A stretch of DNA of 56,393 nt, from positions 1 through 56,393 of IMG/VR virus record IMGVR_UViG_3300018476_000015; one strand, given 5' to 3'. The notes under the pieces were generated by a model. The model was not told the origin of the DNA. It did not search any database and saw nothing but the letters and a program-made list of their open reading frames with translations. The stretch's first letter is position 1. The number at the start of each line of letters is the position of its first letter. Both the position numbers and the translations under genes were made by a program. The DNA comes from a virus (lineage: Duplodnaviria > Caudoviricetes). Shown piece after piece: positions 11,002 through 56,393 of the stretch.

Positions 11002-11721
11002 ATGACGACCGCGACCGCGACGCGGCTGCCCGGAAAGCCCGGCCGGCCGCGCACCCGGAAGGAGCGCCCCCAGGTGGGGCTGCCCCTGCCGGCGAACCAG
11101 CGCACCCAGGGCCCGCAGTACAGCGGGTCCGCCGAAGACAAGGCCCACTTCATCCCGGTGGGGCACCGCCTGCGCCTGCTCCGCATGGAGACGGGTCTCA
11201 ATCAGAAGGATTTCGCCCTGGCCACGCTCCAGGACGACCCCCTGGGCAAGGGGCTCACCCCGTACACCGTCAACCGCTTCGAGAACGGGGTGCACAGCCC
11301 CCGCCCGAAGAACGCCATCCTGCTGGCCAAGACGTTGAGCCGGCTGCTTGCCCGGCCGATCCAGGTGAGCGACCTCACCGTCCGGGACGCGGACGGGCTG
11401 GTCGACTACCTGGAGACCGTGCGGGGCAACCGGGAGTCGCCGGCGGTGTTCTACGGCCGGCTGCACATCCCCGAAGAGCGGGCCCGCAAGCTGCGCGCCG
11501 GCACCGTGGCCTGGACGGGCGACGAGTTGGGGCGGGTGGCGATGCACTACGCCGGCGCCGCCGACCTGGTGCGGGACGTGCTCATCGCCCAGGCCAAGCG
11601 GAAAGACGGTTACCCGGCGGCGTTCGGGGAGGTGACCACCAAGTGGGACGGCGTCGACCTGCCCACCAAGCCGGGGGCGAGGCCCGAGCCCAACCCCGAC
11701 CCGGCGCCCCTCTACCGCTAA
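11002..11721 (+). CDS. XRE-family HTH transcriptional regulator
   Basis: GHRLRLLRMETGLNQKDFA…TVNRFENG…P…LAKTL. Confidence 0.8.
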   Translation: MTTATATRLPGKPGRPRTRKERPQVGLPLPANQRTQGPQYSGSAEDKAHFIPVGHRLRLLRMETGLNQKDFALATLQDDPLGKGLTPYTVNRFENGVHSPRPKNAILLAKTLSRLLARPIQVSDLTVRDADGLVDYLETVRGNRESPAVFYGRLHIPEERARKLRAGTVAWTGDELGRVAMHYAGAADLVRDVLIAQAKRKDGYPAAFGEVTTKWDGVDLPTKPGARPEPNPDPAPLYR

Positions 11722-41915: not shown

Positions 41916-44900
41916 TCACACCGTCCCCGGCGAGCCCGCAGCCCGCCCCGCGCTGGTGGGCACCACGCCCGTCTGTTGGAGCAACCGCTGCAGCGGGCTC
42001 ATCGCCTGGGGCATCGCCGGCCCCCCGTAGTAGCCGGTGGTCGGGCTGGCCACCCGGCTGCCCCCGCCGGTCGTGGCCGGCACGTTGCTCGCCCCGAAGC
42101 GGGGGGCGCCCGTCCCGGCGCTGGCCCCGGGCTGGTAGAGGGTGGACTGCCCGGCGACGCCGGAGGTCCCGGAGACGCCCGAGGTGGAGAAGGGGGCCGG
42201 GGTGGCGGCGTCCCACATGGGCGCCTGGGCCTGGCCGTTCTGGCTCTGCTGGGCGCCGTAGGCCCCGCCCCCGGCGCCCCCCGTCGCCGGCGAGGGCCCG
42301 GCGAAGCCCCCGGACATCCCGCCCCCGTTCCGGTCGCGGGCGGGGTCGGGCTGCTCCAGGGCCATCTGGGCCCCGTAGCCCACGTTGACCGACGCCGGCG
42401 GGGGGATGGTCCAGATGGAGCCCCCGCCCCCGCCGGTGCCGTGCTCCCAGCCGTAGGTGCCCATCGTCGGCGGGTCCTCGCCGTGGTAGCCGGCCCCGCC
42501 CCCGCCCAGGCCCTCGAAGGCCGAGCCGTCCGCCCGGTGCCAGGTCTCCACCGCCCCGTCGTCGTAGTGGGTCTGGAACCAGTCGCCGTCCAGGGGCATG
42601 ATGTGCTTGCCCTGGACGGGCAGGCGCCGGCGCTTCTTGGCGGCGGCGCTCTGGCTCTGGCCTTGCGCGCCCCCGCCACCGCCCCCGCCGCCGGTGGCGA
42701 TGTTGGGCGTGCTCTGGATGCCCCCCTGCTGGCCTTGACGCTGGCGCTTGGGGATGTAGTAGCCGGGGAAGTCCATCCCCCCGCCCACGAAGTAGCCGCC
42801 CTCGTCCTCCTCCTCTTCGGGGACGGGGGGCGACCAGGGCGGGGCCTCGCCGGGCGACCCGCCGGGCACCACGTTGCCGGTGTAGAAGTTGGCCGGCGCC
42901 GCCTGGTCGGGGGGTGGCCCGCCCTCGGGCAGCGGGATTTGCCACTCGTCGCTCGTCCCGTCCGAGTAGGTGGTACGGGCGTAGCCGGGCTTGCCCTCGC
43001 TCTCCAAGTCGACCGTGCTCACCTCGGTGCGAGGCTGGGTGGAGGGCTGCTGGGCGGTGTTGGGGGTGTTGTAGTCGGCCCCGGGCGCGGCGGTCGCCGG
43101 CGCCGCCGCCGGCGCAGCAGCAGCGGGGGCCGGTGACGCGCCGGCGGCCTTGGGCTTGAAGGGCGAGGTGAAGGGCTCCTGCTGCTGGGCCACCACGCCC
43201 TGGCGCTGCTTGTCGATGCCGGCCTGGCGGGCCTGCTGGGCGTCGTAGTTGGCCGCCACCGGCTCGAAGACGTTGGGGGCGATGTTCATCGAGGCGGCCG
43301 CCTTGCGGGGGTCGGTCACCTGGGACAGGCTGGCCAGCATCGCGGTCTGGAAGGGGGCGGTGGCCATCTGGTAGCCGGCCACCCCCTGGCGCGCCTCGCC
43401 CGCCTCGGCGGTGCGCCGGGTGCGCTCGCTGAAGCCCTCCTCCGCGAGGTTGTGGCGCCCGGCCTCAAGCTGCTGCTGGCGCTGGGTCTCGCTGTTCTGC
43501 AGGGCGGTGAAGTCCTGGACGTTCTTGGCCGCCTGCATGACCAGCCCGCGCACCTCGGACGGGGAGGCCCCCGAGTTGATGGCCTCCTCGATGCGCTGCC
43601 ACTCCTCGGCCTCCTTCTGCTCCTGGGCCAGCTTGAAGGCGTCGCTCTCGGCCTTGGTCCCGGCCTGGTCGCTCTCGGCCTTGGCGCGCTTGTCGTAGAC
43701 GGCCCGCTCCTCGGGGGTGAGCGTGTCCGTCATCGAGACCAGCTTGCCGTTCTGGTCGATGCGCACCGCCTGGCCCGTCGAGGAGACCGTGACGCTGTCC
43801 GTCAGGCGCTCATCGAACCCCGGGTTGGGGGTGGCGACGATGTCCCCCGTCACCCGGTCCTGGGTGACGATGTAGCGGTCCTTCGAGGTGGCCCGCACCT
43901 CCTGGGGGGTGTTCAGGAACGAGCGGTTGGGCTGCCAGACAATCGACCCGTCCGAGGGGTCGTAGATGAGCAACTCCGGGCCGTCCCCGCCGGAGAGCAC
44001 CACCGGGTTCCCGTCCTTGGGGATGGGAATCTGGTTGATGAGGTTGCCGGCGGGGTCGGTGACGTAGAGCCCGTCCGCCCCGGTGTGCACGCTGACGGTG
44101 GGGGGCTTGGGCCCGCCGATGGGCTTCCACTGCCCGTCCTTGGGGTCGAGGAAGACGGTCTGCCCGGTCTCCTGGTCGACCGCCGTCTGGACGTTGCCCT
44201 GCTGCCCCGGGGGCTTCTGCCCGGTGGCCTCGGCCACGTCCTTGAGGTTGCTCTGCTGGGCCTTGGCCAGGTCGGTGCGGGCCTTCGCCTGGGCCTCGAC
44301 AATCGCGTCGTAGTCCTTGCGCTCGGGGGAGCCGGGCTTCTCCATCCCCGCCACCAGGGCCTGCGCCGTCCGCAGCGCCGCCACCTCCGGGGTGTCCGGG
44401 TTGTCGTTGTCCACCGGGGGCACCACGTTGTTGGCCTGCTTGAGGAGCCACCTGGCGTTGTCCAGGGCCTCGGCGGCGTCGTACAGCTTGGCGTTGGCGA
44501 CGTTGGCCCGCTCCTTGGCCTCGGCCAGGATGGGGCTGTCGCCCGGATCGGGCTGGGCGTCCGGCACGCGCTGGCGCTTGGGCGGGCCGGTGGGCGCCGG
44601 CTCGGCGGTGGCCCCGGGCGTCCCGGGGGCGGTGGTCGCGGCGCCCCCGGGGTTGCGGGCCCGGATGGCGTCGATGCCGGCCTGGATGGTGGCGCCGGCC
44701 TTGCCCAGGAAGTCCCCGACGCCCTGCAGGGGTCCGGGCTTGGCCGCCCCCGAAGGCTGCCCCGCCTGGCGTACCGCGTTCCCGAGGGCCACGCCCTGCT
44801 GCGCCTCGTCGGTCAAAGCCATGTCCGTACTCCCTGCCTCCGGTGCCGCCGGTGCCGCCGGCGCTGCTGGTGCCGCCGGGCGGCGCGTTGAGGCCCCCTG

Positions 44901-46517
44901 CCCCATCGGGACGACGGTCGATCCGGTGCCGGTCGCCCCGGCGGCGGCGTCGATCCGCGCCTGCGTCTCTTCTACCAATTTCGGATCAAGCGCGAAGGAG
45001 TATCGCTCCCGCGCCGGCGCAGCGGGCGCCGCCGAGATGTTCTGCAGCCCCTGGGTCCCATCCGTCAGCACGTTGGCCCCGGAGGTGAGCAACTCCGTCC
45101 CCGGCATGGGCCCCGGCACCGGCTCGGGGGGTGGGCCCCCAATCTCGGGCATGGGCGCCGGCGGTGGCCCCCCGGCGGGCGTGGGGCTGGGCATCGGCGC
45201 CGGCGGGACGTTGGGCACCCGGGCGGTCTTCTTCCACGCCTCGTAGGCGGCCTGCGCCGGCGTCGCGGGCGGCGGGGTTGTGGGCCTCGCCTGCTGCGTG
45301 GCCGGCGCCGGCAGGGTCTGGTCGGGCTTGGGCAGGGTGGTGGCGGTGGCCCGCCCCGCCTGGCCCGGGGGCAGGCTCTGCCCCTCGGAGCCCACCGTCA
45401 CCCGCCCGGGCGTCCACTTGCCGGCCTTGACGATGTCGGTCAGCTTGCCGTTGGCGTCCCAGAACATGGCGTCGACGTGGGCCCCGGTGGCGTTCCCCGA
45501 GTCGCCCACCGCGCCGATGAGTTGCCCGCCGACCACCCGCTGCCCGGGGCGCACCTGGATGCTCCCGGCGGCCTGGTGGGAGTAGCGGGCCTTGGTGCCG
45601 TCCGCGTAGTTGACGATGACCGAGCCGCCCCAGCCCCCGTTCTCCTTGGGGTTGCGCCCGCCCCGCCGGCTGTCCCCCTGGGCCTGGTAGACCTCGGTCA
45701 CCACCCCGTCCATCTCGGCCACGATGGTGGCGCCATACGGTGCGGTCAGGTCGGCCCCGGTGTTGGAGGACGGCAGGGCCAGGCCCTCGGCCCCGGCCGA
45801 GCGGAACTGCTGGGCGCCGAAGGGGTTGTTGACCCCGCCGGGCCGGACGCCCACGATGGGCCAGAAGCGCTCGCCCGCCTGCTGGGGCGGGCCCCCGCCC
45901 CGGATGGCGCCGGCGCTGATGGTCGGCGCTCCCCGGGCCCGGGGCCCCTTGACCACGGTCACGCCGGCCTTCCCGCCCGTCATGGGGGTGTCGCGCCCGG
46001 CCTTGACCACCACCGAGCCGGGGGGCCGGGGCAGGGGCGCCCGGCTGGGGGGCAGCCCCACCTGGCGCACGCCCGCCGCCACGACCCCGCCTGGGGGCGC
46101 CGGCGGGGGCGTCCCGCCCTTGCCCACCCCGCCGGCGGCGGCGTCCAGGGCGGACATCCCCTGCTTCATCCGGCCCAGGTTGGCGTCGATGTTGCGGGCG
46201 TACTCCCCGGCCTTGAGGGGGCGCTGGGCGTAGGCGGCGATCTGGCCCGGGGTGGCCCCGGGGTGCTTGGCCAGCATCTGCCGGAACTCGGCCGCCGCCC
46301 GCCGGGCGGCGGCCTCGACGTTCTGCCGGGCGGCGATGGGCAGGCCGTGGCCCCGCCCGGCGTCGTGCTCCTGGAAGACGCCGTGGCTCTTGCCGTTGTC
46401 CCCCACCGCGTCGGGGCGCAGCCCGCTTTCTTGGACGGCGGTGGCCACCCCCAGGTCGGGGTCGAGCCCGGCCGCCAGCCAGACCCGGCGGATGACGCTC
46501 TCGACGCTCTCGGCCAC
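41916..46517 (-). CDS. Internal virion protein with lysozyme/SLT-like and degenerate M23 domains
   Basis: ATAVQESGLRPDAVGDNGKSHGVFQ; GADL.AP.GA.I.A..DG.V…G.G..V…YSH…V..GQRV..GQLIG.VGDSGNATGAH. Confidence 0.75.
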   Translation of the reverse strand: MAESVESVIRRVWLAAGLDPDLGVATAVQESGLRPDAVGDNGKSHGVFQEHDAGRGHGLPIAARQNVEAAARRAAAEFRQMLAKHPGATPGQIAAYAQRPLKAGEYARNIDANLGRMKQGMSALDAAAGGVGKGGTPPPAPPGGVVAAGVRQVGLPPSRAPLPRPPGSVVVKAGRDTPMTGGKAGVTVVKGPRARGAPTISAGAIRGGGPPQQAGERFWPIVGVRPGGVNNPFGAQQFRSAGAEGLALPSSNTGADLTAPYGATIVAEMDGVVTEVYQAQGDSRRGGRNPKENGGWGGSVIVNYADGTKARYSHQAAGSIQVRPGQRVVGGQLIGAVGDSGNATGAHVDAMFWDANGKLTDIVKAGKWTPGRVTVGSEGQSLPPGQAGRATATTLPKPDQTLPAPATQQARPTTPPPATPAQAAYEAWKKTARVPNVPPAPMPSPTPAGGPPPAPMPEIGGPPPEPVPGPMPGTELLTSGANVLTDGTQGLQNISAAPAAPARERYSFALDPKLVEETQARIDAAAGATGTGSTVVPMGQGASTRRPAAPAAPAAPAAPEAGSTDMALTDEAQQGVALGNAVRQAGQPSGAAKPGPLQGVGDFLGKAGATIQAGIDAIRARNPGGAATTAPGTPGATAEPAPTGPPKRQRVPDAQPDPGDSPILAEAKERANVANAKLYDAAEALDNARWLLKQANNVVPPVDNDNPDTPEVAALRTAQALVAGMEKPGSPERKDYDAIVEAQAKARTDLAKAQQSNLKDVAEATGQKPPGQQGNVQTAVDQETGQTVFLDPKDGQWKPIGGPKPPTVSVHTGADGLYVTDPAGNLINQIPIPKDGNPVVLSGGDGPELLIYDPSDGSIVWQPNRSFLNTPQEVRATSKDRYIVTQDRVTGDIVATPNPGFDERLTDSVTVSSTGQAVRIDQNGKLVSMTDTLTPEERAVYDKRAKAESDQAGTKAESDAFKLAQEQKEAEEWQRIEEAINSGASPSEVRGLVMQAAKNVQDFTALQNSETQRQQQLEAGRHNLAEEGFSERTRRTAEAGEARQGVAGYQMATAPFQTAMLASLSQVTDPRKAAASMNIAPNVFEPVAANYDAQQARQAGIDKQRQGVVAQQQEPFTSPFKPKAAGASPAPAAAAPAAAPATAAPGADYNTPNTAQQPSTQPRTEVSTVDLESEGKPGYARTTYSDGTSDEWQIPLPEGGPPPDQAAPANFYTGNVVPGGSPGEAPPWSPPVPEEEEDEGGYFVGGGMDFPGYYIPKRQRQGQQGGIQSTPNIATGGGGGGGGAQGQSQSAAAKKRRRLPVQGKHIMPLDGDWFQTHYDDGAVETWHRADGSAFEGLGGGGAGYHGEDPPTMGTYGWEHGTGGGGGSIWTIPPPASVNVGYGAQMALEQPDPARDRNGGGMSGGFAGPSPATGGAGGGAYGAQQSQNGQAQAPMWDAATPAPFSTSGVSGTSGVAGQSTLYQPGASAGTGAPRFGASNVPATTGGGSRVASPTTGYYGGPAMPQAMSPLQRLLQQTGVVPTSAGRAAGSPGTV

Positions 46518-49500
46518 CTACTTCACCCCCACCAGGCGCGCCGCCGCGCTGGCCTTGCCCCGCACGGCCTGCTTGCGCTCCTTCTCCTCCTGGATGCGCT
46601 TGTTGTAGTCCTCGTTCTTCTTGTACCCGGTGTACTGGTCGGCCAGGACGCGCTCCCGGTTGGTGGGCCGGTCGCCCGGGGGCACCGCCCGGCGCTCGTC
46701 CTTGGCCTCCTGCTCGGCCTTGACCTTGCGGTAGGCCTCCGCGATGGCGGTCTCCTGCTCCCCGCTCTTCCCGCCCACGTAGCGCCGGGGCGGTTTGGTC
46801 TGGGCGCCCATGTAGCCCTCGCGCCCCAGCAGGGGGTTCCAGAAGCGCTCCTGGCCCGACCCGGTGCGCTTGATGCGGTTGCCGTAGGCGGTGCGGGCCT
46901 CGGGCACCTGGCCGGACAGACCGGGGATGCCGGCCATCATCCGCTCGATGGGGTCGCGGGGCGAGCGCTCCTGGTCGGAGGTGGCCTGCTCCAACTCGCG
47001 CCAGATGCGCCCGCCGTAGAGCCCGGAGACGGCGCTCGTGCCCTGGCGCACCAGGGCCTCGGCCACCCCGTCGTCCTCGCCGGCGCCCACCGCCTGGCGC
47101 TTCCCGCTGGAGATGATGTCGGAGACGCCCTCGAAGAAAGGCCGGTTGATCGAGTACGAGGCGTTGGTGTTGATGAAGCGGGCCACCAGGCGCTGGTACT
47201 CGGCGGCGTCCCACTTGGTCCCGGCCAGGTCGTGCCGGCGCCAGAAGTCCCCGATGGTGGCGGCCTGGGTCAGCGACGAGTTGAGCCCCGGGAACATGGT
47301 CACCGGCTGCCACCGGGAGCCCACCCGCAGGCTGAAGGGCTGCTTGCCCTCGGCCCGCCAGCGCTTCAACTCCTCGGGGTCCTCCGGCTCCGGCCCGGTG
47401 ATGTTGCCCGAGGCGTAGGCGGCGAGGATGCCCAGGGAGATGAAGCTGCCCAGCGTCCCCCGGGCGTAGCGCTCGTACAGTTCGGTGCGGTTCTGCTTCT
47501 CCAGGTCGCCCGTCTTGGCGTCCTTGCCGTGCTGCAGGGCGGTGCGCACCAGCCCCACCGGGGAGCGCTCCAGGTCGTACTTCATCCCGTTGTAGGGGAT
47601 TTCCCAGAAGGGGATGACGAGTTTGCCCCCCGGCAACTCCCGGAAGCCGTTGACCGCCTTGCCGTAGCGGTCCATCTCCTGGGTCAGGCTGCGGTAGGCC
47701 TCGGTGTTCTTGACCGCCTCCTTGATTTGCGCATCGGTCAACGTGGCCTTGCCCTGCCTGGCGCGCAGGTCGTTGCGGGCCTGGAGGGCGGCCTCCTCGG
47801 CGGCGGCGGCGGCGTACTTGGTCGCCGCGTCGAAGATGCCCAGGACGCGGAAGCCCCCGTCCACGAAGCCCTGCACCCGCTTGTGGACGGGCCCGGTGGC
47901 GGCGAGGCGCTCCGCGTCCTTGCCGGTGGCGCCCCGCTGCAGGCGGGACTGCTCGGTCTCGTGCTCGGCGGACAGGCTCTTCTTGGCCTCGGCCCAGGCG
48001 GCGCCCTTGTTGTCCCAGTAGCTGCGCAGCATGGCCAGGCTCTCGCGGGCGCTGGGCACGTCCGCCCGGAGGTCCTGCCCGGCCTTGCGCTCCCCGATGT
48101 TGGCCAGCCCGCCGGCGAGGGCCCGCTCGGCCGGCTGCCACCCGATGGTGGCCACGTTGCCCACCAACTGCCGGCCCAGGCCCTTGACGGAGAGGAGCAT
48201 CCCCAGCTTCATGCCGGAGCCGGCCGTGGTGCCCCAGGTGGTCTGGCGGGGCTTCTCTACCTTGCCGGTGGTCTCCGGCCCCGGTTCCCCTGCATCGTCG
48301 CCCGGCGTATAGCTTCCCGGGGGTTGGGGGGTCGCGGTGGGGCTTCCCCCGCCGGGGAGGGCGCTGGGCCCTCCGGTGGGAGCGCCTCGTCCGGGCTGCC
48401 CGGGGCGGACGGGCCGGCCAGGTCCTCCGGGGCCGGGGGGAGGTCCGCCTGGTCCTCCGGGCCCAGCCCCGGCGCCGATGCCAGCACTCCGCTGGAGGGC
48501 GGCGAGGTGCTCGTCGCGCCGGGCTCGGGCTCCAACCCGCTCGGCGTCGCTGTCCCGGGTGTTGCCCCGTTCGCTGAGGGCCCGGGCCCCGAGGACTCCT
48601 GATCCGGGCTGTCCGGGTCGACCTCCTCGAAGGTCGGCAGGTTCTGCCCCGGCCACGTCCGCAGGGCCGCCTCGTACTCTTGCCTCGGGTCCAGCCCCGA
48701 GTCCCGCACCATCTCCAGGCTGAACCTGATTGCGTCCGGTGACGCCTCGTCGTGCACCGCCCGGAGCAACCCCGCGACCATCAGGTCCTGGTCCAGCTTG
48801 GCGTCCGAGCCCTCCGGCCCCGGCCCCCCGCCCGGCCCCGTCCCCAACTGCTGGGGCTCCGGCACCGGCTGCTCCGACTGCACCGGCTGCTCCGGGTTGG
48901 GCGGTGCGTCCGCGGACGATTCCGGTGGCGTTGGGGTCTCGGCCGACCATGGAGTCCCAGGAGAGGACGGGGTCGCGGACGTTGGGGGCGAAGAATCCGC
49001 CGTCGTAGATGGCCCCCGCCTCGGAGGCAAGTTGGTGGAGTAACTCATAGTCGTTGGCCTCCAGCAGGGTCATGACCTGGCGCGCCACCGCCCGCTGCTC
49101 GGTGATGGTGGCGTTGATGTTCAGGCGCAGGCGCTCTTTCCACGCCGGGTCGCTGTGGTCGTTGTGCTGTATCTCGTTGTGGGTCACCTCGTGGACGATG
49201 TCCTCGGCGGCCTGCGCCGCCATCTTCTGGGCCACCGCCGCCTTCCAGGAGGCCGAGGTGTACTCGGCCAGGGGACGGGGCCGGGGGATGGCCTCCTCGA
49301 TGACCCGACCGGCGCTGTCCAGGACGGCCGGGGTGCCGTTGTTCAGGCGCCAGACGGCGTTCATGAACCACATCTGCGGGTTGGTCAGCACCTGGCCCGG
49401 CTGGCCCCGGTCGCGCCCGATGTTGGGCGGGACGTTGATGGCCAGGTGCTCGGCGTTCAGGACGAAGCCGGCCGCCACGGCCCGCTCGTACTTGCGCGCG

Positions 49501-52500
49501 TCCAGGGTGCCCTGGCGCTGGGCCGAGGCGATGAGGGCCTGCTGCAGGGTGTTGAAGCCCGCCGTCCAGCCCTCGGCCAGGTCGGTGTGGTTCAGCCGGG
49601 CGGTGGTCGTCGGCAGCCCCCCGGCCTGGCCCAGCGTGACGCGCTGCGCCGCCCCGAACTGGCGTCGCCACCGGGGGTCGCGCGCGGCGGCCGACCCGGG
49701 CTTCGGCCTGGGCACCACCCACTTCGCCCGGCTCGTCCCGATGGGGTTGGCCTGGCTCAGTTGCTGGTTGAACCACCGCGTCTCGTCGTCCGCCGCCGGC
49801 CCCCCCTCTTCCTGGGCGGCCCCGCCCCGCACCATCTCCGGGGTGATTAGCTGCGGGGTGGCTCTCCCGCCTGGCCCTCCCGGGACGGGGGAGGTGAGGA
49901 CCCCGCCGTCGAGCCCGAGGGCGGCGTCGGCTCGCCCGACCCGGCCGTCCGGGTGGGGGCCAGCGCCCGGGTGCGCACGCGCTGCCGGAGCCGGTTGCCC
50001 ACGGTCGCCAGGGGCGCCGAGCCCGCCGGGCGCTGCTGTTCCGCTTCCCGCGCCGCGAACTCCCGCACCTCGTCCTCCGTCTCCGGCCAGCCCGGCGTCC
50101 CCGGGTAGCCCATCGCCCTGGAGGTCTGGTTCAGTTGGTAGCGCCGCAGCCACCCCTCCAGGCCCTGGGGCTGCGCGAACCGGCGCTGCACCCAGGCCCG
50201 GAACTGCTCCTCGGTCTCCACCGGCTCCGGGCTCGGTTTCTGCCGATACTCGGTTGCCGGCGATCCCGGCTCCGGGCTCAGCGCCGGCGCCGGCTCCGGG
50301 CTCGGCGCCGGCGGTTGCCCCCTCGGCGCCCTCGGCGGGGTCGCGGAGGGCGGCCTCGCGGACGGCGTCGAGTTGGTCCTGGTAGGTCCAGTCCTCGGCC
50401 CCCCACCTCGTCTGGTCGACATCGGGCGCGTCCTTCGTCCGCAGGTTGAAGATCGACTGCTGGCGGAACCGTTCCGCCAGGCGCATGGCCGTCTCCCGGT
50501 CGGCCACCGGGATGGACAGGTCGAGGTTGATGGCCTTGCTGTTCGGGTCCAGCTTGCCGTCCTTGGTGCGCTGCATCCCGGCCCACGTCCCGATGGCCAG
50601 GAAGGGGAAGTTGTTGAACGGGTCGCGGCTCTCGGCGTGGAACTGGGCCAGCCGGAAGCCGGCGCCCTTGGCGTTGAACTCGTGGGTCTCGTTGATGTCC
50701 TGGCTGTAGTCGGGGAAGACGGCCACCATCCACACGTCCTCGCCCCGGGCCAGGCGGTCCTTGACCACCTGGGGCATCTTCCCCGGCCAGTAGGTGGAGC
50801 CCCGGTAGGGCAGGGGCTCCCGGTTGTGCATCTCGGCCTGCTCGCCGTAGGCCTCGGCCTTCTCCGGCCACAGGCCCTGCATGGGGTCGTCCAGGGCCTC
50901 GGCCGGCTGGAAGGGGGCGTTCGCGTTGAACTCCGCGACGCCCCGGCCCCCGGGCTCGCCCAGGTGCAGGGCCTCCCGCTGGGCCATGGTGGTGCGCACC
51001 GTGCCCTCGATCAACTCCTGGACCTTGCCGGTGTCCTTGTTGACCCGGATCAGGCCCTTGCCCACCGTGCCGACCACGTTGCCCGCCTCGTCCCGGATGT
51101 CCAGGGCGAAGCCGGCGTCCTGGTCCTTCGACCAGGGGGTGCCCGTCGTGGGGCCCTGGCCCTTGAGTTGGTCGGCCAGCTTCCAGCCCCAGCGCCGGCC
51201 GATCTGGTCCTCGGTGAAGATGCGGAAGGGCACCTGGCGCCGGCCGTACTTCTCCCGGGCGGCGCCGACCTTCTCCGGCACCTTCCAGGGGTCCAACTCC
51301 CAGGCGGCGGCGTGCTTGACCTCCAGCACCTCCTGCTTCCCGCTCGTGTAGGTGACCAGGAAGTCGGGGGCGAAGATGCCCTCCTGCCCGGCGTCGGTGA
51401 TCCCGCCCGGGCGGGTGATGGGGTGGAAGCGCCGCTCCGGCTTGATCTGGAAGCGCACCCGCCCCCGCTGGGACAGGCTCTTCGTCCAGGTCGCCACGTT
51501 GGGGTCGCTGTCCAGGCGGATGGCCAGCAGCAACTCGTACAGGCTGTCGAAGTGCTGCTTGACCCCCGTCTTCTTGGAGGTGTAGGCGATGCCCTTGAGC
51601 GGGTCGTCGGTCTCCGACTTGATGGCCCCCCGCTCCTGGCCGGAGCGCTTGAGTTGCTCGCCCCGGGGCTGGGGGCCCTCGGCCAGCACGTTGAGCGCGG
51701 CGTCGAGCACCTTCTGGGGGATGCCGGCGGCAATCGAGGCGTCCTTGGACGACTTCTGCTCCAGGTCGTAGATGCGCAGGCCCTCGATGACGGCGTCGGG
51801 GGTGGCCTCCCCGAAGTCGAAGCCCCCGGCGGCGTGGGCGTCCTGCAGGGCCCGCTTGGCCTGGGCCCGCTGCTGCCGGGTGGCCATGGCCAGGAGGCTG
51901 CCCTCGGCCTGGGCGGCGCCGCGCTTGGTCGCCGCCTCGGCCTTGCGGGCGTCGCGCTGGGCGAACTGGGCCCGCAGCTTCTCCGCGGCCGCCGGCGTCT
52001 TGGCCTTGTCGATCCGGGCCTGGTCGGCGGCGCGCTGCTTCTCCGTCCGGCCCCGCTCCCGGGCCGCCTCGCGGTCGCGCTTGACCTGCTCGCGCGCGGC
52101 CACCTCGGGGGCCCGGCGCTCGGCGCTGGCCCGGGCCTTCTCCTCCGAGGCCAGGCGCTTGGCCGCCAGGTTGGCCTGGGCCACCCCAGGCGCCGCCCGC
52201 TCCAGGCGCTCGCGGTAGGGGTAGTCCGGCAGGGGCGACACGTCCAGCCGGCCCTCCGGCTCGGGGGACGTGGAGGGCTCGCGCTCCCAGCGGTAGCGGG
52301 CGTCCCCCGGCTCGACCGGGGTGTCTGGCCCGAACAGGTCGTCCAGCCGGCCCCGGCTGGCCGCCTGCCAGTAGACGAAGTCGGTGCCGGTCAGCAGCGT
52401 CCCCGGCTCGGGGGGCAGGATGACCACCTCGTCGCCCTCGGAGACGCCCAACTCCGCGGCCATCTGGGCGTCGGCGGTCATGGTGGGCCAGCCCGCCTCG

Positions 52501-55500
52501 GGGGTGGGGAAGGCCGGAGCCCGGCCCGGCTTACCCAGCCCGGCGAAGCGCCCCACCCCGGGGATGGTGCCGTCGTCCGTCCAGTCCGGGCCCACCGGGG
52601 CGTTGCCGTACTCGCCCGGCTGGGCCTTATAGACGCCCGAGGTCTTGGGGCGCCAGCCCTCCTTGAAGGGGTAGAGCGGGGTGACCCCGTCCGCCCGGGT
52701 GGTCTTGCCCCCCTCGCCCCGCAGCTTCTGCCTGATCTGCATCCGGCCCTGGGCGTCGGGCCCCACCGCGGTGAAGCCGGCCTCGCCGGCCAGTTCGGCG
52801 TCCCGGCCCATCCCGCCGGCGACGGCCTCGTCCCCCGCGTCCTCGTCGCCGGCGTCCTCCTCGGCCTCGGGCTCGGCCTCTTCGTCTACCTCAACCTCGG
52901 CCTCGTCCTCGGTGGCGGTCTCCGGGTCCTCGTTGTCGAGGTCGTCGTCCTCCTCGTCCAGGTCCTCTTCGGTCTCGGTCTCCGGGCCCTCTTCCCCGGT
53001 CTCCGGGACCACCCGGGAGCCGGCCACCTCGGCACCGGCCGGGCCACCCACCTGGTCGGGCAGGCGCCCCTCGTCCCAGGCGTCGAGGTCGTCCGGGGCG
53101 TCCGGGGGCGCCTCCTCGCCGGCCTGCTCGTAGTCCTGGCGGGTGCGCTCCGGCTGCCCCGCCTGGGCGGTTCCGGTTTCGGGCGCCACCTTGTGGTAGA
53201 GCGCGAAGCCCTCCTGCACCCGCTTGCGCAGGGCGTCGTTGATGGGCAGCACCCACACGTCGAGGTCGGCGTCCTCGCTCGGGTCGTGGTCGTCGGGCGG
53301 GCGCAGGGTGGTGCGCTCCACCGCGACGCCGGCGGGCTTGCCCAGCTTGTTGGCGATGCCCACCATGATCTGGTCGTACTGGCGGGCCATCGTGCGGCCC
53401 TTGCTGTCCGCGACCAGGATGTCCTCGCCGTCGATCAGGGCGGTGCCGTCCGGGCCCACGTTGGCCGGGTCGGTGAGGTAGGCCGTCGCCGTATCCCCCA
53501 CGTACTGGGGCAGTTGCTCGGGCGGGACGTGGTAGGTGCGCTCGTGGTCGCCCCCGTTCTCGGCCCGGGGCACGACCCGCAGGGTCTGGGTGGCCGGCTC
53601 GTAGGCGGCGCGCTGCACGATCCGCCCCGCGCTCCAGCGCCGGGCGATGACCTGCCCCGTCGACCAGGAGATGGCCTCGGCGCCCCGGTCGACCGCGTCG
53701 CGTAGCTGGCGCTCCAGCAGCTTCTCGGTGATGGTGTTGTCCGGGAAGGGGGCCCGGGGGTAGCCCTCCGGGCTGACCGTGGCCGCGTCGTCCAGGTGGC
53801 GCTGGGCGCCCTCGACCCCGTCGCGCATCTCGTAGGCGGCCTCGTGGGCGTCCTGGAAGGCGCGGTCGCTGTCCGGGGTGTCCTCGTCGTGGCTGGCCGC
53901 CTCGGCCTCCTGCTCGAAGGCGTGCTGGCGCTGCTCGAAGGCGTCGCGCAGGACCCGGTTGTAGGCGATCCAGGCGCCCTGGTCGCCCCCGCCGGCGTAG
54001 CGCTCGTAGAGGTCGGAGGTCAGCAGGTTCCGGTCGCGCACGGCCTCGCCGTAGGCCCGCGCCTCGGGGGGCAGGCCCTCGGGGAAGGGCGCGTCCCGGC
54101 GGGCCAGGGCGCTCTGGTAGGCCCCGTTCTCGGCCCGCTCCTGGTCGATGTTCTGGCCGTTCTCCCGGATGCGCTTCTCGATGCGGCGCACGCTGTCGGC
54201 GCCGTGGATGGTGCCGTAGGCCCACTCCTCGGCGGTGGCCTTGCTCCGGCGCAGGGTGGTGCGCTGCAGCCCGGTGTCGGGGGCGGCGGCCATGGTGCGC
54301 ATGGCGTTCTGCATCGCCGCCCGGGCGCGCAGTTCGGTCTCCACCGCCTGCACCAGGTACTCGGCGTCGGCCCGGGTGGCGGCCGGGATGGGCTGGTCCC
54401 AGGCCCGCTCCATGGCCACCCGGTCCCAGGTGCCCTGCTTGCGCCCGCGCTGGTGGATGTCGGTCTGGGACTCGTTGTTCTGGACGGTGGTGCGCCCGTC
54501 CGCCAGCACGTCGTCGTGGGTGCGGTTGGCGCCCACGATGCCGGGCCGGCCCCCGTAGTGGGAGCCCACGCTGAACTCGCCCACGTCCAGCTTCTGCTCG
54601 TCCAGGGCGGTGCGGTCGTAGGCCGGGGTGGTGCCCCGGTCGGCGCCCACCCGCAGCAGGGTCTCGCGGGGATTGGCCTCCTGCTCGGCCCCCCGGCGCA
54701 GGGTGTAGTTGTACTCGCCCGGGCGGCTGTACTGGGCGTGCTCCGGCTTGCCGGCCGGCTTGGGGGTGAAGGGGTTGACCTCGCCCCCGGCCAACTCGGC
54801 CGCCGCGTAGACCCGCCTTCGGATGGGACGCACCGCCTCGGACAGTTGCCGGCGGGCCTCGTTCATGGCCTCGGGCCCGGCGCCCCGCCCGCCCACCAGC
54901 ATCGAGGTGTTGACCACGTAGTCGTCCAACTCGCGCAACCAGGCGGCGGCCATCCGGCCCGGCTCGCTCTCCAGCAGGGCGTCGGGCAGGTCCTCGCCGG
55001 TCAGCGGGTCGGTCGGCGGGGGCGCGGAGAGGCGCTTGTAGATGCCCTCGCGGAAGGCCTGGTCCTCCGCGGTGCGGGGCGCGCCCACCAGGCGGTTCAG
55101 CACCGCCTCGCTGTTGGCCCGCAGGTTGGACTGCACCTCGGCCTTGGCCGCCTCCTGCTGGGCCCGGAAGAGCAGGTCGGCCACCGCCCGCTTCCGCTGG
55201 GCCTCGGCCTCGGGGCCCGTCTCGGCCCCGGTGCGGTCGTAGCCCAGCACGCTCTCCACCAGGGGCAGGCGGTTCTGCTGGACGTGCTGCAGCAGTTGCT
55301 GGCGGTCGACCGGGGTGCCCGCCTGCTCGGCCCGGTCGAGCAGGGCGTCCGTCCCCGTCCAGTAGAGTTCCTCCTTCTTGACCCCGTTGCCCAGCAGCAA
55401 CTGGCGTAGCTGGGCGGCGGGCATCCGGCCCTGGCGGAACTTGGCCTCGATGACCCGCTCTAGCTGGGAGTACCAGACCCCGGCGCGCTCGCCGGCGGGG

Positions 55501-56393
55501 GCCCGCCCGCCCAACTCGGAGCGCACCATGGTGGGCTCGGGCACGTCGGTGCGGGGCTGCGCCGGGACGGGCTCGCCCGGGCGGTGGGGCTCGGGCCGGG
55601 CCGCCGCCTCCTCCCCGCCGGAGAGGAAGGCCAGGCGCCGGCGCAGGGCGTCGTACTGGGCGCCGGTGACCGTCTGGGCCAGGCGGGGCAGGTTGGCGTT
55701 GGCGTCGCGCAGGGTCTCCGTGGCCCCCACCGAGGCGGCCTGCTCGTAGGTGTCCAGGAGGTGCTCGTAGATGCGGTTCTGCTGCGGGGTGCCGGCGCTG
55801 CGCAGGGCCTCGTCCGGCTCGGTGAGCATGGGCGACTCGCCGGCCTCGCCGGGGCGCACCGTGATGGCGGTGGGCTCGGGCTGCCCGCCCAGCGCCGCCC
55901 GCCGGCGGGACAGGTAGCCCCGCAGGTCGAGGGCCTGCTGGGGGGAGAGTTGGCCGGCGTTGTCCATGTCCGTGACCATCTGGCCCCGCGACTCCAGGTC
56001 GCCCGGGCTCATGGCGTCGGTGATCTGGCGGTGCAGGGAGCGGTAGAGCCCCAACTGCTGGGGGGTGCTCTCCGGCTCGCCGGGCCGGCCCCGGAAGCGG
56101 GGCGCCTCGGTGCCGGTCGCGGCGTCGAGCACCCGAGGGGCGTTGGGCGGCCCCGCCTCGGGCTGGGCGGTGTGGGCGGCGATGGGGGCCGCCTCCTCCG
56201 CTCGGCGCTGCTGGGGCACCTCGATGACCCGCCCGTCCGGCGTCTCCACCCGGCGCATCGTCTCCGCAGCGGGCGCCTGGGTTTGGGCTTGCTGGGCCTG
56301 CGCCGCCGGCGCGGCGACGCGCAGGTCGCGCACGGCCTGGTCGGAGGCCTGCGCCGCCGGGTCGGTGCGCGGGTCGCGCCCGGCCTCGCGGGC
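46518..56393 (-). CDS. Giant polyvalent virion protein (>3290 aa, 5' end outside window)
   Basis: Frame open to window end; contains WYSQLE…GVKKEEL, QTDIHQ…APF…ISWSTG…YDQ, TnsA-like nuclease, HEVTH zincin motif, C-terminal PF..IPYN helical domain. Confidence 0.85.
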   Translation of the reverse strand, partial: AREAGRDPRTDPAAQASDQAVRDLRVAAPAAQAQQAQTQAPAAETMRRVETPDGRVIEVPQQRRAEEAAPIAAHTAQPEAGPPNAPRVLDAATGTEAPRFRGRPGEPESTPQQLGLYRSLHRQITDAMSPGDLESRGQMVTDMDNAGQLSPQQALDLRGYLSRRRAALGGQPEPTAITVRPGEAGESPMLTEPDEALRSAGTPQQNRIYEHLLDTYEQAASVGATETLRDANANLPRLAQTVTGAQYDALRRRLAFLSGGEEAAARPEPHRPGEPVPAQPRTDVPEPTMVRSELGGRAPAGERAGVWYSQLERVIEAKFRQGRMPAAQLRQLLLGNGVKKEELYWTGTDALLDRAEQAGTPVDRQQLLQHVQQNRLPLVESVLGYDRTGAETGPEAEAQRKRAVADLLFRAQQEAAKAEVQSNLRANSEAVLNRLVGAPRTAEDQAFREGIYKRLSAPPPTDPLTGEDLPDALLESEPGRMAAAWLRELDDYVVNTSMLVGGRGAGPEAMNEARRQLSEAVRPIRRRVYAAAELAGGEVNPFTPKPAGKPEHAQYSRPGEYNYTLRRGAEQEANPRETLLRVGADRGTTPAYDRTALDEQKLDVGEFSVGSHYGGRPGIVGANRTHDDVLADGRTTVQNNESQTDIHQRGRKQGTWDRVAMERAWDQPIPAATRADAEYLVQAVETELRARAAMQNAMRTMAAAPDTGLQRTTLRRSKATAEEWAYGTIHGADSVRRIEKRIRENGQNIDQERAENGAYQSALARRDAPFPEGLPPEARAYGEAVRDRNLLTSDLYERYAGGGDQGAWIAYNRVLRDAFEQRQHAFEQEAEAASHDEDTPDSDRAFQDAHEAAYEMRDGVEGAQRHLDDAATVSPEGYPRAPFPDNTITEKLLERQLRDAVDRGAEAISWSTGQVIARRWSAGRIVQRAAYEPATQTLRVVPRAENGGDHERTYHVPPEQLPQYVGDTATAYLTDPANVGPDGTALIDGEDILVADSKGRTMARQYDQIMVGIANKLGKPAGVAVERTTLRPPDDHDPSEDADLDVWVLPINDALRKRVQEGFALYHKVAPETGTAQAGQPERTRQDYEQAGEEAPPDAPDDLDAWDEGRLPDQVGGPAGAEVAGSRVVPETGEEGPETETEEDLDEEDDDLDNEDPETATEDEAEVEVDEEAEPEAEEDAGDEDAGDEAVAGGMGRDAELAGEAGFTAVGPDAQGRMQIRQKLRGEGGKTTRADGVTPLYPFKEGWRPKTSGVYKAQPGEYGNAPVGPDWTDDGTIPGVGRFAGLGKPGRAPAFPTPEAGWPTMTADAQMAAELGVSEGDEVVILPPEPGTLLTGTDFVYWQAASRGRLDDLFGPDTPVEPGDARYRWEREPSTSPEPEGRLDVSPLPDYPYRERLERAAPGVAQANLAAKRLASEEKARASAERRAPEVAAREQVKRDREAARERGRTEKQRAADQARIDKAKTPAAAEKLRAQFAQRDARKAEAATKRGAAQAEGSLLAMATRQQRAQAKRALQDAHAAGGFDFGEATPDAVIEGLRIYDLEQKSSKDASIAAGIPQKVLDAALNVLAEGPQPRGEQLKRSGQERGAIKSETDDPLKGIAYTSKKTGVKQHFDSLYELLLAIRLDSDPNVATWTKSLSQRGRVRFQIKPERRFHPITRPGGITDAGQEGIFAPDFLVTYTSGKQEVLEVKHAAAWELDPWKVPEKVGAAREKYGRRQVPFRIFTEDQIGRRWGWKLADQLKGQGPTTGTPWSKDQDAGFALDIRDEAGNVVGTVGKGLIRVNKDTGKVQELIEGTVRTTMAQREALHLGEPGGRGVAEFNANAPFQPAEALDDPMQGLWPEKAEAYGEQAEMHNREPLPYRGSTYWPGKMPQVVKDRLARGEDVWMVAVFPDYSQDINETHEFNAKGAGFRLAQFHAESRDPFNNFPFLAIGTWAGMQRTKDGKLDPNSKAINLDLSIPVADRETAMRLAERFRQQSIFNLRTKDAPDVDQTRWGAEDWTYQDQLDAVREAALRDPAEGAEGATAGAEPGAGAGAEPGAGIAGNRVSAETEPGAGGDRGAVPGLGAAPVRAAPGPGGVAAALPTEPDLQGDGLPGDAGLAGDGGRGAGVRGAGSGTAAPGGLGAPGDRGQPAPAARAHPGAGPHPDGRVGRADAALGLDGGVLTSPVPGGPGGRATPQLITPEMVRGGAAQEEGGPAADDETRWFNQQLSQANPIGTSRAKWVVPRPKPGSAAARDPRWRRQFGAAQRVTLGQAGGLPTTTARLNHTDLAEGWTAGFNTLQQALIASAQRQGTLDARKYERAVAAGFVLNAEHLAINVPPNIGRDRGQPGQVLTNPQMWFMNAVWRLNNGTPAVLDSAGRVIEEAIPRPRPLAEYTSASWKAAVAQKMAAQAAEDIVHEVTHNEIQHNDHSDPAWKERLRLNINATITEQRAVARQVMTLLEANDYELLHQLASEAGAIYDGGFFAPNVRDPVLSWDSMVGRDPNATGIVRGRTAQPGAAGAVGAAGAGAPAVGDGAGRGAGAGGLGRQAGPGPDGRGVAPGGARRGVTGRNQVQPGDGAGLGAGPEARVRGGPADVAGAEPADLRGGRPGQPGSGVLGARALSERGNTRDSDAERVGARARRDEHLAALQRSAGIGAGAGPGGPGGPPPGPGGPGRPVRPGQPGRGAPTGGPSALPGGGSPTATPQPPGSYTPGDDAGEPGPETTGKVEKPRQTTWGTTAGSGMKLGMLLSVKGLGRQLVGNVATIGWQPAERALAGGLANIGERKAGQDLRADVPSARESLAMLRSYWDNKGAAWAEAKKSLSAEHETEQSRLQRGATGKDAERLAATGPVHKRVQGFVDGGFRVLGIFDAATKYAAAAAEEAALQARNDLRARQGKATLTDAQIKEAVKNTEAYRSLTQEMDRYGKAVNGFRELPGGKLVIPFWEIPYNGMKYDLERSPVGLVRTALQHGKDAKTGDLEKQNRTELYERYARGTLGSFISLGILAAYASGNITGPEPEDPEELKRWRAEGKQPFSLRVGSRWQPVTMFPGLNSSLTQAATIGDFWRRHDLAGTKWDAAEYQRLVARFINTNASYSINRPFFEGVSDIISSGKRQAVGAGEDDGVAEALVRQGTSAVSGLYGGRIWRELEQATSDQERSPRDPIERMMAGIPGLSGQVPEARTAYGNRIKRTGSGQERFWNPLLGREGYMGAQTKPPRRYVGGKSGEQETAIAEAYRKVKAEQEAKDERRAVPPGDRPTNRERVLADQYTGYKKNEDYNKRIQEEKERKQAVRGKASAAARLVGVK
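48257..49048 (-). CDS. Nested +1-frame gene A inside the giant gene
   Basis: GGAGG-N9-ATG; GC3 bias switches to this frame over KLDQDLMVAGLLRAVHDEASPDAIRFSLEMVRDSGLDPRQEYEAALRTWPGQNLPTFEEVD. Confidence 0.7.
   Translation of the reverse strand: MSYSTNLPPRRGPSTTADSSPPTSATPSSPGTPWSAETPTPPESSADAPPNPEQPVQSEQPVPEPQQLGTGPGGGPGPEGSDAKLDQDLMVAGLLRAVHDEASPDAIRFSLEMVRDSGLDPRQEYEAALRTWPGQNLPTFEEVDPDSPDQESSGPGPSANGATPGTATPSGLEPEPGATSTSPPSSGVLASAPGLGPEDQADLPPAPEDLAGPSAPGSPDEALPPEGPAPSPAGEAPPRPPNPREAIRRATMQGNRGRRPPAR
49847..50422 (-). CDS. Nested +1-frame gene B inside the giant gene
   Basis: AAGGA-N8-ATG; GC3 bias switches to this frame over ETEEQFRAWVQRRFAQPQGLEGWLRRYQLNQTSRAMGYPGTPGWPETEDEVREFA. Confidence 0.65.
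   Translation of the reverse strand: MSTRRGGGPRTGPTRTNSTPSARPPSATPPRAPRGQPPAPSPEPAPALSPEPGSPATEYRQKPSPEPVETEEQFRAWVQRRFAQPQGLEGWLRRYQLNQTSRAMGYPGTPGWPETEDEVREFAAREAEQQRPAGSAPLATVGNRLRQRVRTRALAPTRTAGSGEPTPPSGSTAGSSPPPSREGQAGEPPRS

Follow-up and report, generated by a model that had tools for sequence, protein, structure and literature searches.

The virus record IMGVR_UViG_3300018476_000015 of IMG/VR (Duplodnaviria; Caudoviricetes) is linear, 56.4 kb long and very GC-rich (72-79%); we analyzed its full length of 56,393 nucleotides, referred to below as the window. According to the list of open reading frames (ORFs), its minus strand carries a giant ORF of 3291 codons (46518-56393), the 5' end of which lies beyond the window edge. 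A second ORF, B2 (48257-49048, minus strand), lies wholly inside this host ORF, on the same strand and in its +1 frame, and comprises 263 codons, beginning with ATG, plus a TAG stop. We consider it quite likely that B2 is a real protein-coding gene embedded in a giant virion-protein gene. An earlier note on this DNA had proposed a genuine nested gene, and the proposal is supported by a coding signature, by a ribosome-binding site and start codon of its own, and by conservation in five lineages.

Initiation, termination and codon usage of B2

A Shine-Dalgarno (SD) motif, GGAGG (49058-49062, minus strand), stands 9 nt upstream of the ATG of B2 (49048-49046), in the context CTGGAGGCCAACGACT followed by ATG. 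The ATG straddles the host codons TAT-G, and in the 2547 codons of the giant ORF that are host-only, TAT and TAC occur in a ratio of 1:66. Four unusual host codons (TAT, TTA, CAA and CTT) fall within seven codons at the B2 start, where they make up an AT-rich, weakly structured initiation island (49025-49072, minus strand). Host-only sequence uses TAT for 1 of 67 Tyr codons, TTA and CTT each for none of 179 Leu codons, and CAA for 9 of 145 Gln codons; T occupies 0.65% of host third positions. The 50 nt around the ATG have a GC content of 0.54 and a minimum free energy (MFE) of -8.2 kcal/mol, and structure as weak as this occurs in 1.8% of 651 windows of the host ORF. The stop is likewise built from a rare host codon: TAG is formed from GTA-G, and GTA is a codon that host-only sequence uses for 1 of its 135 Val residues. 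The earlier note had described both the SD and ATG supplied through a rare TAT codon and the dependence of the TAG on a rare GTA, and both are found as described.

The same giant ORF harbors a second nested gene, B1 (49847-50422, minus strand), with 191 codons in the +1 frame, located in a spacer upstream of the host-frame module that bears an HExxH motif. Its ATG is formed by a rare GAT host codon and follows an AAGGA motif 8 nt upstream, such that the ORF-initial ATGs of B2 and B1 are both preceded by an SD motif. Only seven ATGs occur in the +1 frame across all 3291 host codons, and six of these are inside B2 or B1. The two nested genes are unrelated to each other (hhalign probability 0.2). 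B1 has a helical core of its own (..EEQFRAW...GYPGTPG...AAREAEQ..), and a profile search with it, conducted among proteins of 80-335 aa only, returned no match.

Base composition identifies the frame that behaves like a gene of this phage. Third-position GC (GC3) of the phage genes is 0.9-1.0, and between 48932 and 48573 the GC content at nested positions 1, 2 and 3 is ~0.70-0.82, 0.48-0.53 and 0.92-0.95, respectively, which is the normal profile for genes of the phage. We scanned host GC3 along the 9.9-kb host ORF in 150-nt windows with a 60-nt step, scoring values below 0.8 as low. All 16 low windows were in nested ORFs, 11 of them at 49013-48413 (B2) and five at 50333-50093 (B1); host GC3 drops to 0.46-0.78 only there and is 0.9-1.0 elsewhere along the ORF. 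The same check in the 23 other ORFs of the window revealed no internal dip, the few flagged windows being 5' ends of stop-to-stop frames. Sites free of constraint in this genome drift to a GC of ~1, and a GC content of ~0.5 at third positions of the host frame must therefore mean that these are held in place as second positions of the nested frame. Individual codons show the same pattern. The two codon strings quoted in the earlier note are present at ~48760-48800, where the nested frame reads AAG CTG GAC CAG GAC CTG ATG GTC and the host frame CAA GCT GGA CCA GGA CCT GAT GGT.

With 21 other genes of the window (9249 codons) as training set, a codon model scored each frame as coding and as the two shifted readings of a coding sequence. 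The nested B2 frame scored -3.62 per codon as coding versus -4.40 and -4.42 as shifted readings; over 183 codons, coding was thus preferred by ~0.79 nats per codon. Read in the host frame, this DNA scored -4.35 per codon as coding versus -3.65 as a shifted reading. B1 behaved like B2, and a control block of the host ORF showed the opposite pattern. The host-frame reading of the B2 region is an open 'spacer' (48300-48950, minus strand) that separates the HExxH module from the C-terminal internal-virion module; its host GC3 is ~0.5-0.75, and its composition is dominated by Gly (28%), Ala (16%), Pro (14%) and Arg (10%). By these measures, and by the comparisons with a relative given below, ~550 nt of the giant gene bear the phage codon signature and amino-acid conservation in the nested frame, not in the host frame.

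Conservation and predicted structure of the B2 protein

Scans of viral contigs yielded only one other contig with nested genes, and scans of genomes yielded none. This relative (labeled L002, L003, L007 or L008) contains a homologous giant ORF of 3810 codons, counted stop to stop, and retains both B2 and B1, each again in the +1 frame. B2 has its own ribosome-binding site and start codon in the relative as well: at the homologous site of L003, an AGGAG motif is followed after 7 nt by a TTG formed by a rare TTT. The host codons of this start region (TTT, CTA, CAA and CTT) occupy the same rare-codon positions as TAT, TTA, CAA and CTT in the window, and the initiation window has an MFE of -5.7 kcal/mol, placing it among the least structured 0.5% of 754. 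All 13 low-GC3 windows of L003 likewise fall within its two nested ORFs. The stops of the nested genes (48257-48259 and 49847-49849 in the window; 11164-11166 and 9709-9711 in L003) are formed by the rare A-ending host codons GTA, CTA, GTA and CTA, and each of the four lies just ahead of the next conserved host module.

Between the window and L002, identity over aligned columns is 64% for B2 and 60% for B1, compared with 51% for the C-terminal module of the host protein and 74% for its upstream module. When the same DNA is read in both frames over ungapped columns, the nested frame matches at 120 of 192 positions and the host frame at 101 of 191. A metagenome scan recovered two contigs, L005 and L006, that are 99.97% and 97.3% identical to L003 and equal to it across B2 and B1. 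Two sequencing runs of DNA, and none of RNA, were listed for this sequence. Contigs from run X1 are identical to the window, and the other contigs are short unrelated pieces; they give no information on variation. Because the layout recurs in these independent records, it is not an assembly error; L005 and L006 exclude such an error but bring no further comparison.

A profile built from the two B2 sequences was searched against 1.84 billion representative proteins and gave five matches: the window type and the L002 type, both called from internal starts, and three diverged lineages, P0005, P0006 and P0007, which are predicted proteins on short contigs (P0005 is truncated). All five lineages share an MS[YF]S[TA] start, a Pro/Ser-rich stretch, a helical core and an acidic Pro-rich stretch, and in all five the core ends in a ..P[TP][FW][ED][ES]V[DN]P.. 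motif. A basic tail with the motif ..ALRRA...GNRGRRP is present in all four sequences that reach the C-terminus. Every lineage has Tyr or Phe as residue 3, and the host frame is thereby forced to use a rare Leu codon, NTA or NTT. Absence of nested-frame conservation had been set out in the earlier note as grounds for rejecting the gene; such conservation is present in five lineages.

The predicted B2 protein is acidic (pI 4.2) and has no cysteine. An AlphaFold2 model based on the five-sequence alignment predicts helices with confidence (pLDDT 82-93) for residues 81-150, the main ones spanning residues 81-99, 104-116 and 121-131. The core as a whole (residues ~76-152; 48593-48823, minus strand) is the best conserved block of the alignment, and residues 76-150 contain 17 Asp and Glu versus 6 Lys and Arg, in agreement with the acidic helical core that the earlier note had envisaged. 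The C-terminal tail (residues 239-263; 48260-48334, minus strand) is strongly basic (pI 12), carries the ..ALRRA...GNRGRRP motif and includes a short helix at residues 243-254 with a pLDDT of ~74. Outside the core and the tail helix the protein is disordered in the model, with disordered parts rich in Pro, Ser, Thr and Glu.

Searches for relatives beyond this family were negative. A tblastn search with B2 found no match in cultured phages and plasmids, and the best E-value of a profile search against PDB was 0.2. Foldseek comparison of the model with PDB and BFVD gave nothing at E ≤ 0.001, and a wide structural search with VIA-align reached at best a Z of 6.3, to generic helical bundles and below the level that is meaningful for helical folds. 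The ESM Atlas contained no usable feature match to B2, with structural TM values of at most 0.50.

The giant host protein and its homologue P0008

The C-terminal module of the host protein (host ORF residues 2871-3049) matches phrog_6651, 'internal virion protein' (E 3.8e-6), and the same part is 28.6% identical in a tblastn comparison to the internal virion protein of a T7-like cyanophage (E 4e-6). Further upstream, residues 1668-1728 match a TnsA-like endonuclease N domain. Directly downstream of the giant ORF is a gene for a protein of 1533 aa (41916-46517, minus strand), residues ~237-358 of which are M23 / metallo-endopeptidase-like and the PHROG matches of which are named endolysin and metallo-endopeptidase; it is probably, to judge by these matches, a second internal virion protein with wall-cutting activity. 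The gene for the major head protein is located further downstream. The host gene thus combines internal-virion homology with a virion-module setting. From the internal-virion and TnsA-like matches and from its M23-like and major head gene neighbors, we classify it as the gene of a giant multi-module virion protein of the 'polyvalent' kind, one that is probably ejected.

The HExxH motif of the host protein lies in a domain at ~48950-49920 (minus strand), where, as the earlier note had indicated, HEVTH occupies 49179-49193; the initiation island of B2 is located at the end of this module. The motif is kept in homologues: HEVTHNEIQH in the window, HELTHNEITH in L002 and HEITHQPERWH in a giant homologue, P0008. 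The module matched no Pfam family at E ≤ 1 and no PDB sequence below E 0.3 (best matches at E 0.3-0.8), and its AlphaFold model from three sequences (mean pLDDT 43) was too poor for a fold search. The label 'metallopeptidase-like' used by the earlier note therefore stands as far as the motif goes, but finds no sequence relative in Pfam or PDB to sustain it. The module may represent an undescribed zincin-like family, or no peptidase at all.

When the last third of the host protein was used as query, one giant relative was recovered, P0008, which has 2832 aa, is 36% identical and is encoded on a 70.7-kb contig. Its order of elements is an HEITH module, a conserved ..RNDYELLQQL.. helix and then a homologue of the B2 core, the latter in the frame of P0008 itself: residues 66-148 of P0007 match P0008 residues 2086-2167 by BLASTP (45% identity, E 1e-18), and residues 77-145 of P0001 match P0008 with 32% identity (E 2e-5). 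After the core, P0008 reads ..GGQPGAP.., which is the L002 host-frame reading of the DNA that encodes the ..GNRGR.. tail. Taken at face value, then, P0008 reads the core as part of the giant protein and the tail out of frame, and the core module could exist in cis as well as in trans; two assembly indels may also have produced the in-frame core. Residues ~500-560 and ~880-1250 of P0008 comprise more Arg/Pro/Gly/Ala stretches that resemble out-of-frame readings, one of them ~370 residues long, and suggest that there may be further frame-shifted or nested genes in the gene for P0008.

The arrangement in P0008 raises the alternative that the core is a domain of the giant protein, reached by frameshifting (+1 in, -1 out) or by indel toggling in the G/C-rich flanks, and that a separate 263-aa form is not the main product. 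P0008 itself fits this account, with the core in frame after the HExxH module and a return to host-type reading over the tail region, as do its other long, junk-like Arg/Pro/Gly stretches and the presence of formal X_XXY_YYZ heptamers of G and C in the Pro/Gly-rich flanks. A frameshift product, on the other hand, would have no need of the conserved SD and start, built from rare host codons in an unstructured island. Residue 3 is kept as Tyr or Phe in five of five lineages, at the cost of a rare Leu codon (NTA or NTT) in the host frame. The heptamers are at non-homologous positions (four in the window, and one elsewhere in L003), and in both lineages nested reading ends at a stop of its own a short way ahead of the following host module. 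P0008, moreover, is a single protein from one contig, the DNA of which may contain indel errors. On balance we regard this alternative as improbable. In a separate evaluation of B2 as a programmed frameshift product, the junction had no conserved slippery site, the only heptamers being composed of G and C and non-homologous for B2, and this candidate was rejected; an Rfam scan found no element that reached its gathering score.

If B2 is instead a gene in its own right, ribosomes would initiate internally on the mRNA of the giant gene and B2 would be made as a separate protein. Ribosomes translating the giant gene would pass over the same DNA in the host frame and produce a sequence-unconstrained Gly/Ala/Pro/Arg spacer, tethering the HExxH module to the C-terminal internal-virion module. 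A search for sigma-70-like promoters found none, and three terminator-like sites on the plus strand were at the level of shuffled sequence. For the host gene, a +1 insert of this kind would be nearly free. For a stop codon to arise in the -1 frame of a gene, that gene must have T at a third position, so a GC3 near 1 keeps the -1 frame almost free of stops; with synonymous resampling of B2 and B1, the host frame stayed open in 30-78% of trials.

Several considerations weigh against B2 as a separate nested gene. Openness of a frame is uninformative by itself at such GC, with 39 ORFs of at least 80 aa overlapping 44000-54000. Host-frame openness over the nested genes is also insignificant (synonymous codon resampling of B2 and B1, P = 0.62, 0.78, 0.30 and 0.55); it is expected by chance at this GC3 and proves nothing alone, leaving read-through of the giant ORF as something that we infer. 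Nei-Gojobori pN/pS values for the nested and host frames are 0.73 versus 1.13 for B2 and 0.72 versus 1.18 for B1, against 0.85 versus 0.80 for a host-only control: the direction fits nested coding, weakly so given that the test discriminates poorly in the control at such extreme GC3. The true start is uncertain, since a gene caller picked an internal GTG for the window's copy of B2 (P0003) and the relative L003 starts with TTG instead of ATG. The layout was read from DNA in two lineages, and for P0005-P0007 nesting is extrapolated from the common MS[YF]S start. Searches of Pfam, PHROGs and NCBIfam with B2 found no family and thus provide no functional assignment. Lastly, the in-frame core of P0008 means that the core may be a domain of the giant protein, or may have been one in the past, and not a protein of its own.

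The abundance of alternative-frame ORFs also leaves room for B2 to be a relic in decay, or a frame that is open by chance in DNA of 75% GC, from which no protein is made. Given the host protein and the codon usage of the phage, resampling puts the probability that the +1 frame is open by chance at P ~0.12-0.15. A relic or chance frame does not explain why a nested GC3 of at least 0.9 and a second-position GC of ~0.5 are kept across lineages that differ at ~36-40% of residues, or why the core, the motifs and the start persist in five diverged lineages, along with a conserved cluster of rare codons at the start. We disfavor this explanation and consider it very improbable.

A further explanation holds that the giant ORF is not one protein, its five segments (host, nested, host, nested, host) being separate cistrons and the host frame being open by chance. 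The resampling values for host-frame openness (P 0.30-0.78) are those expected under this explanation, and the caller's division of the region on another contig, into P0003 (208 aa) and P0009 (564 aa), also fits it. However, no stop interrupts the host frame over 3291 codons in the window or 3810 codons in L003, and ribosomes that initiate upstream must therefore continue to its end. Inspection of the host segments that follow each nested gene also found no start codon or SD conserved in the two lineages. On these two grounds, the absence of a host-frame stop and of conserved starts after the nested genes, the giant ORF would be read through, and we rate separate cistrons as very improbable.

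The contig on which the caller divided the region is a public one of 37.9 kb. There, P0009 corresponds to the C-terminal host module (46521-48211, minus strand) and P0003 to the nested gene from its internal GTG (48257-48883, minus strand). Public protein sets already contain fragments of B2, with the overlap unrecorded.

What the B2 protein does is a more tentative matter. The earlier note had conjectured that it is an inhibitor or a partner of the metallopeptidase-like domain; for the partner reading, P0008, with the core in frame directly after the HExxH module, offers an indirect, fusion-type hint and the only one. Because that lineage has the core fused at this very place, we think it possible, without placing even odds on it, that B2 acts with or on the giant protein, as a subunit supplied in trans or a partner in assembly, and probably does so beside the HExxH module.

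Comparison with known overlapping genes and implications

Overprinted genes are familiar from small viruses and phages, for example B within A and E within D of phiX174. B2 resembles them in that two proteins would be obtained from one stretch of DNA in different frames, and in that disorder-promoting residues abound in whichever partner is younger or under less constraint. Classical overprinting places the weak constraint on the new frame, whereas here the constrained frame is the nested one and the long host frame would be the passenger. With a genome of 56 kb or more, saving of space is unlikely to be the driver.

The Rz/Rz1 pair of phage lambda provides another comparison. Kongari et al. 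(2018, PMC6139136) describe an inner gene that is wholly contained in the outer one, on the same strand and in the +1 frame, has its own initiation and is usually missed by gene callers; the spanin genes of related phages are described there in embedded, overlapped and separated layouts. B2 has the same embedded architecture, and its nested and fused states recall the range of spanin layouts. The proteins differ: Rz1 is a lipoprotein of ~60 aa from a locus in which both frames are functional, whereas the B2 product would be a soluble-looking, cysteine-free protein of 263 aa. B2 differs further in that its outer frame would be reduced to an unconstrained spacer, and in that the outer virion gene, of more than 3291 codons, holds two unrelated inner genes. 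An assignment of B2 itself as a spanin (an Rz1-like o-spanin) is ruled out, since its 263-aa translation has no cysteine and hence no lipobox.

Overlapping alternate-frame insertion (OAFI) is a synthetic design in which a gene is put in an alternate frame of a flexible region (Leonard et al., bioRxiv 10.1101/2024.11.07.622342), the same architecture as in B2. OAFI is engineered and needs both genes to be redesigned, whereas the layout of B2 is natural and extreme GC3 would keep the outer frame open without redesign.

The host gene invites comparison with the polyvalent proteins of phages and conjugative elements, which include zincin-like metallopeptidase (MPTase) domains (Iyer et al. 2017, PMC5512222). 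Like them its product is giant and multi-module; it is located in the virion module and has an endonuclease-like domain and an HExxH module. That HExxH module matches no Pfam model. A word search of PMC5512222 gave 0 occurrences each of frameshift, overlapping, linker and low-complexity. No paper describing nested genes in linkers of giant phage proteins turned up by word matching in the open-access literature.

A broader and rather doubtful proposal, again drawn from the sequences, is that the spacers of giant injected proteins in very GC-rich phages park whole small +1 genes, and that indels toggle such modules between cis and trans. Single-base indels in the G/C-rich, low-complexity flanks would switch a module between a domain of a polyprotein, as in P0008, and a separate protein, as in the window and four other lineages. 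If this is true, accessory modules of ejected proteins would have a cost-free, reversible cis/trans switch, with extreme GC3 keeping the giant frame open either way.

Genes such as B2 and B1 would be invisible in phage and metagenome catalogues, because annotation pipelines forbid long overlaps on the same strand, and the giant host protein gets recorded with hundreds of residues of meaningless 'linker'. More could be sought in GC-rich phages by a simple rule: host GC3 collapses locally, and a rare T-ending codon forms a start in the +1 frame. B2 also offers a clean experimental handle, in that one base change that is synonymous in the host frame abolishes the nested start. The locus would reverse the usual picture of overprinting, the embedded frame being the constrained one, and the in-frame version in P0008 suggests that accessory modules of ejected polyvalent proteins may be supplied in cis or in trans.

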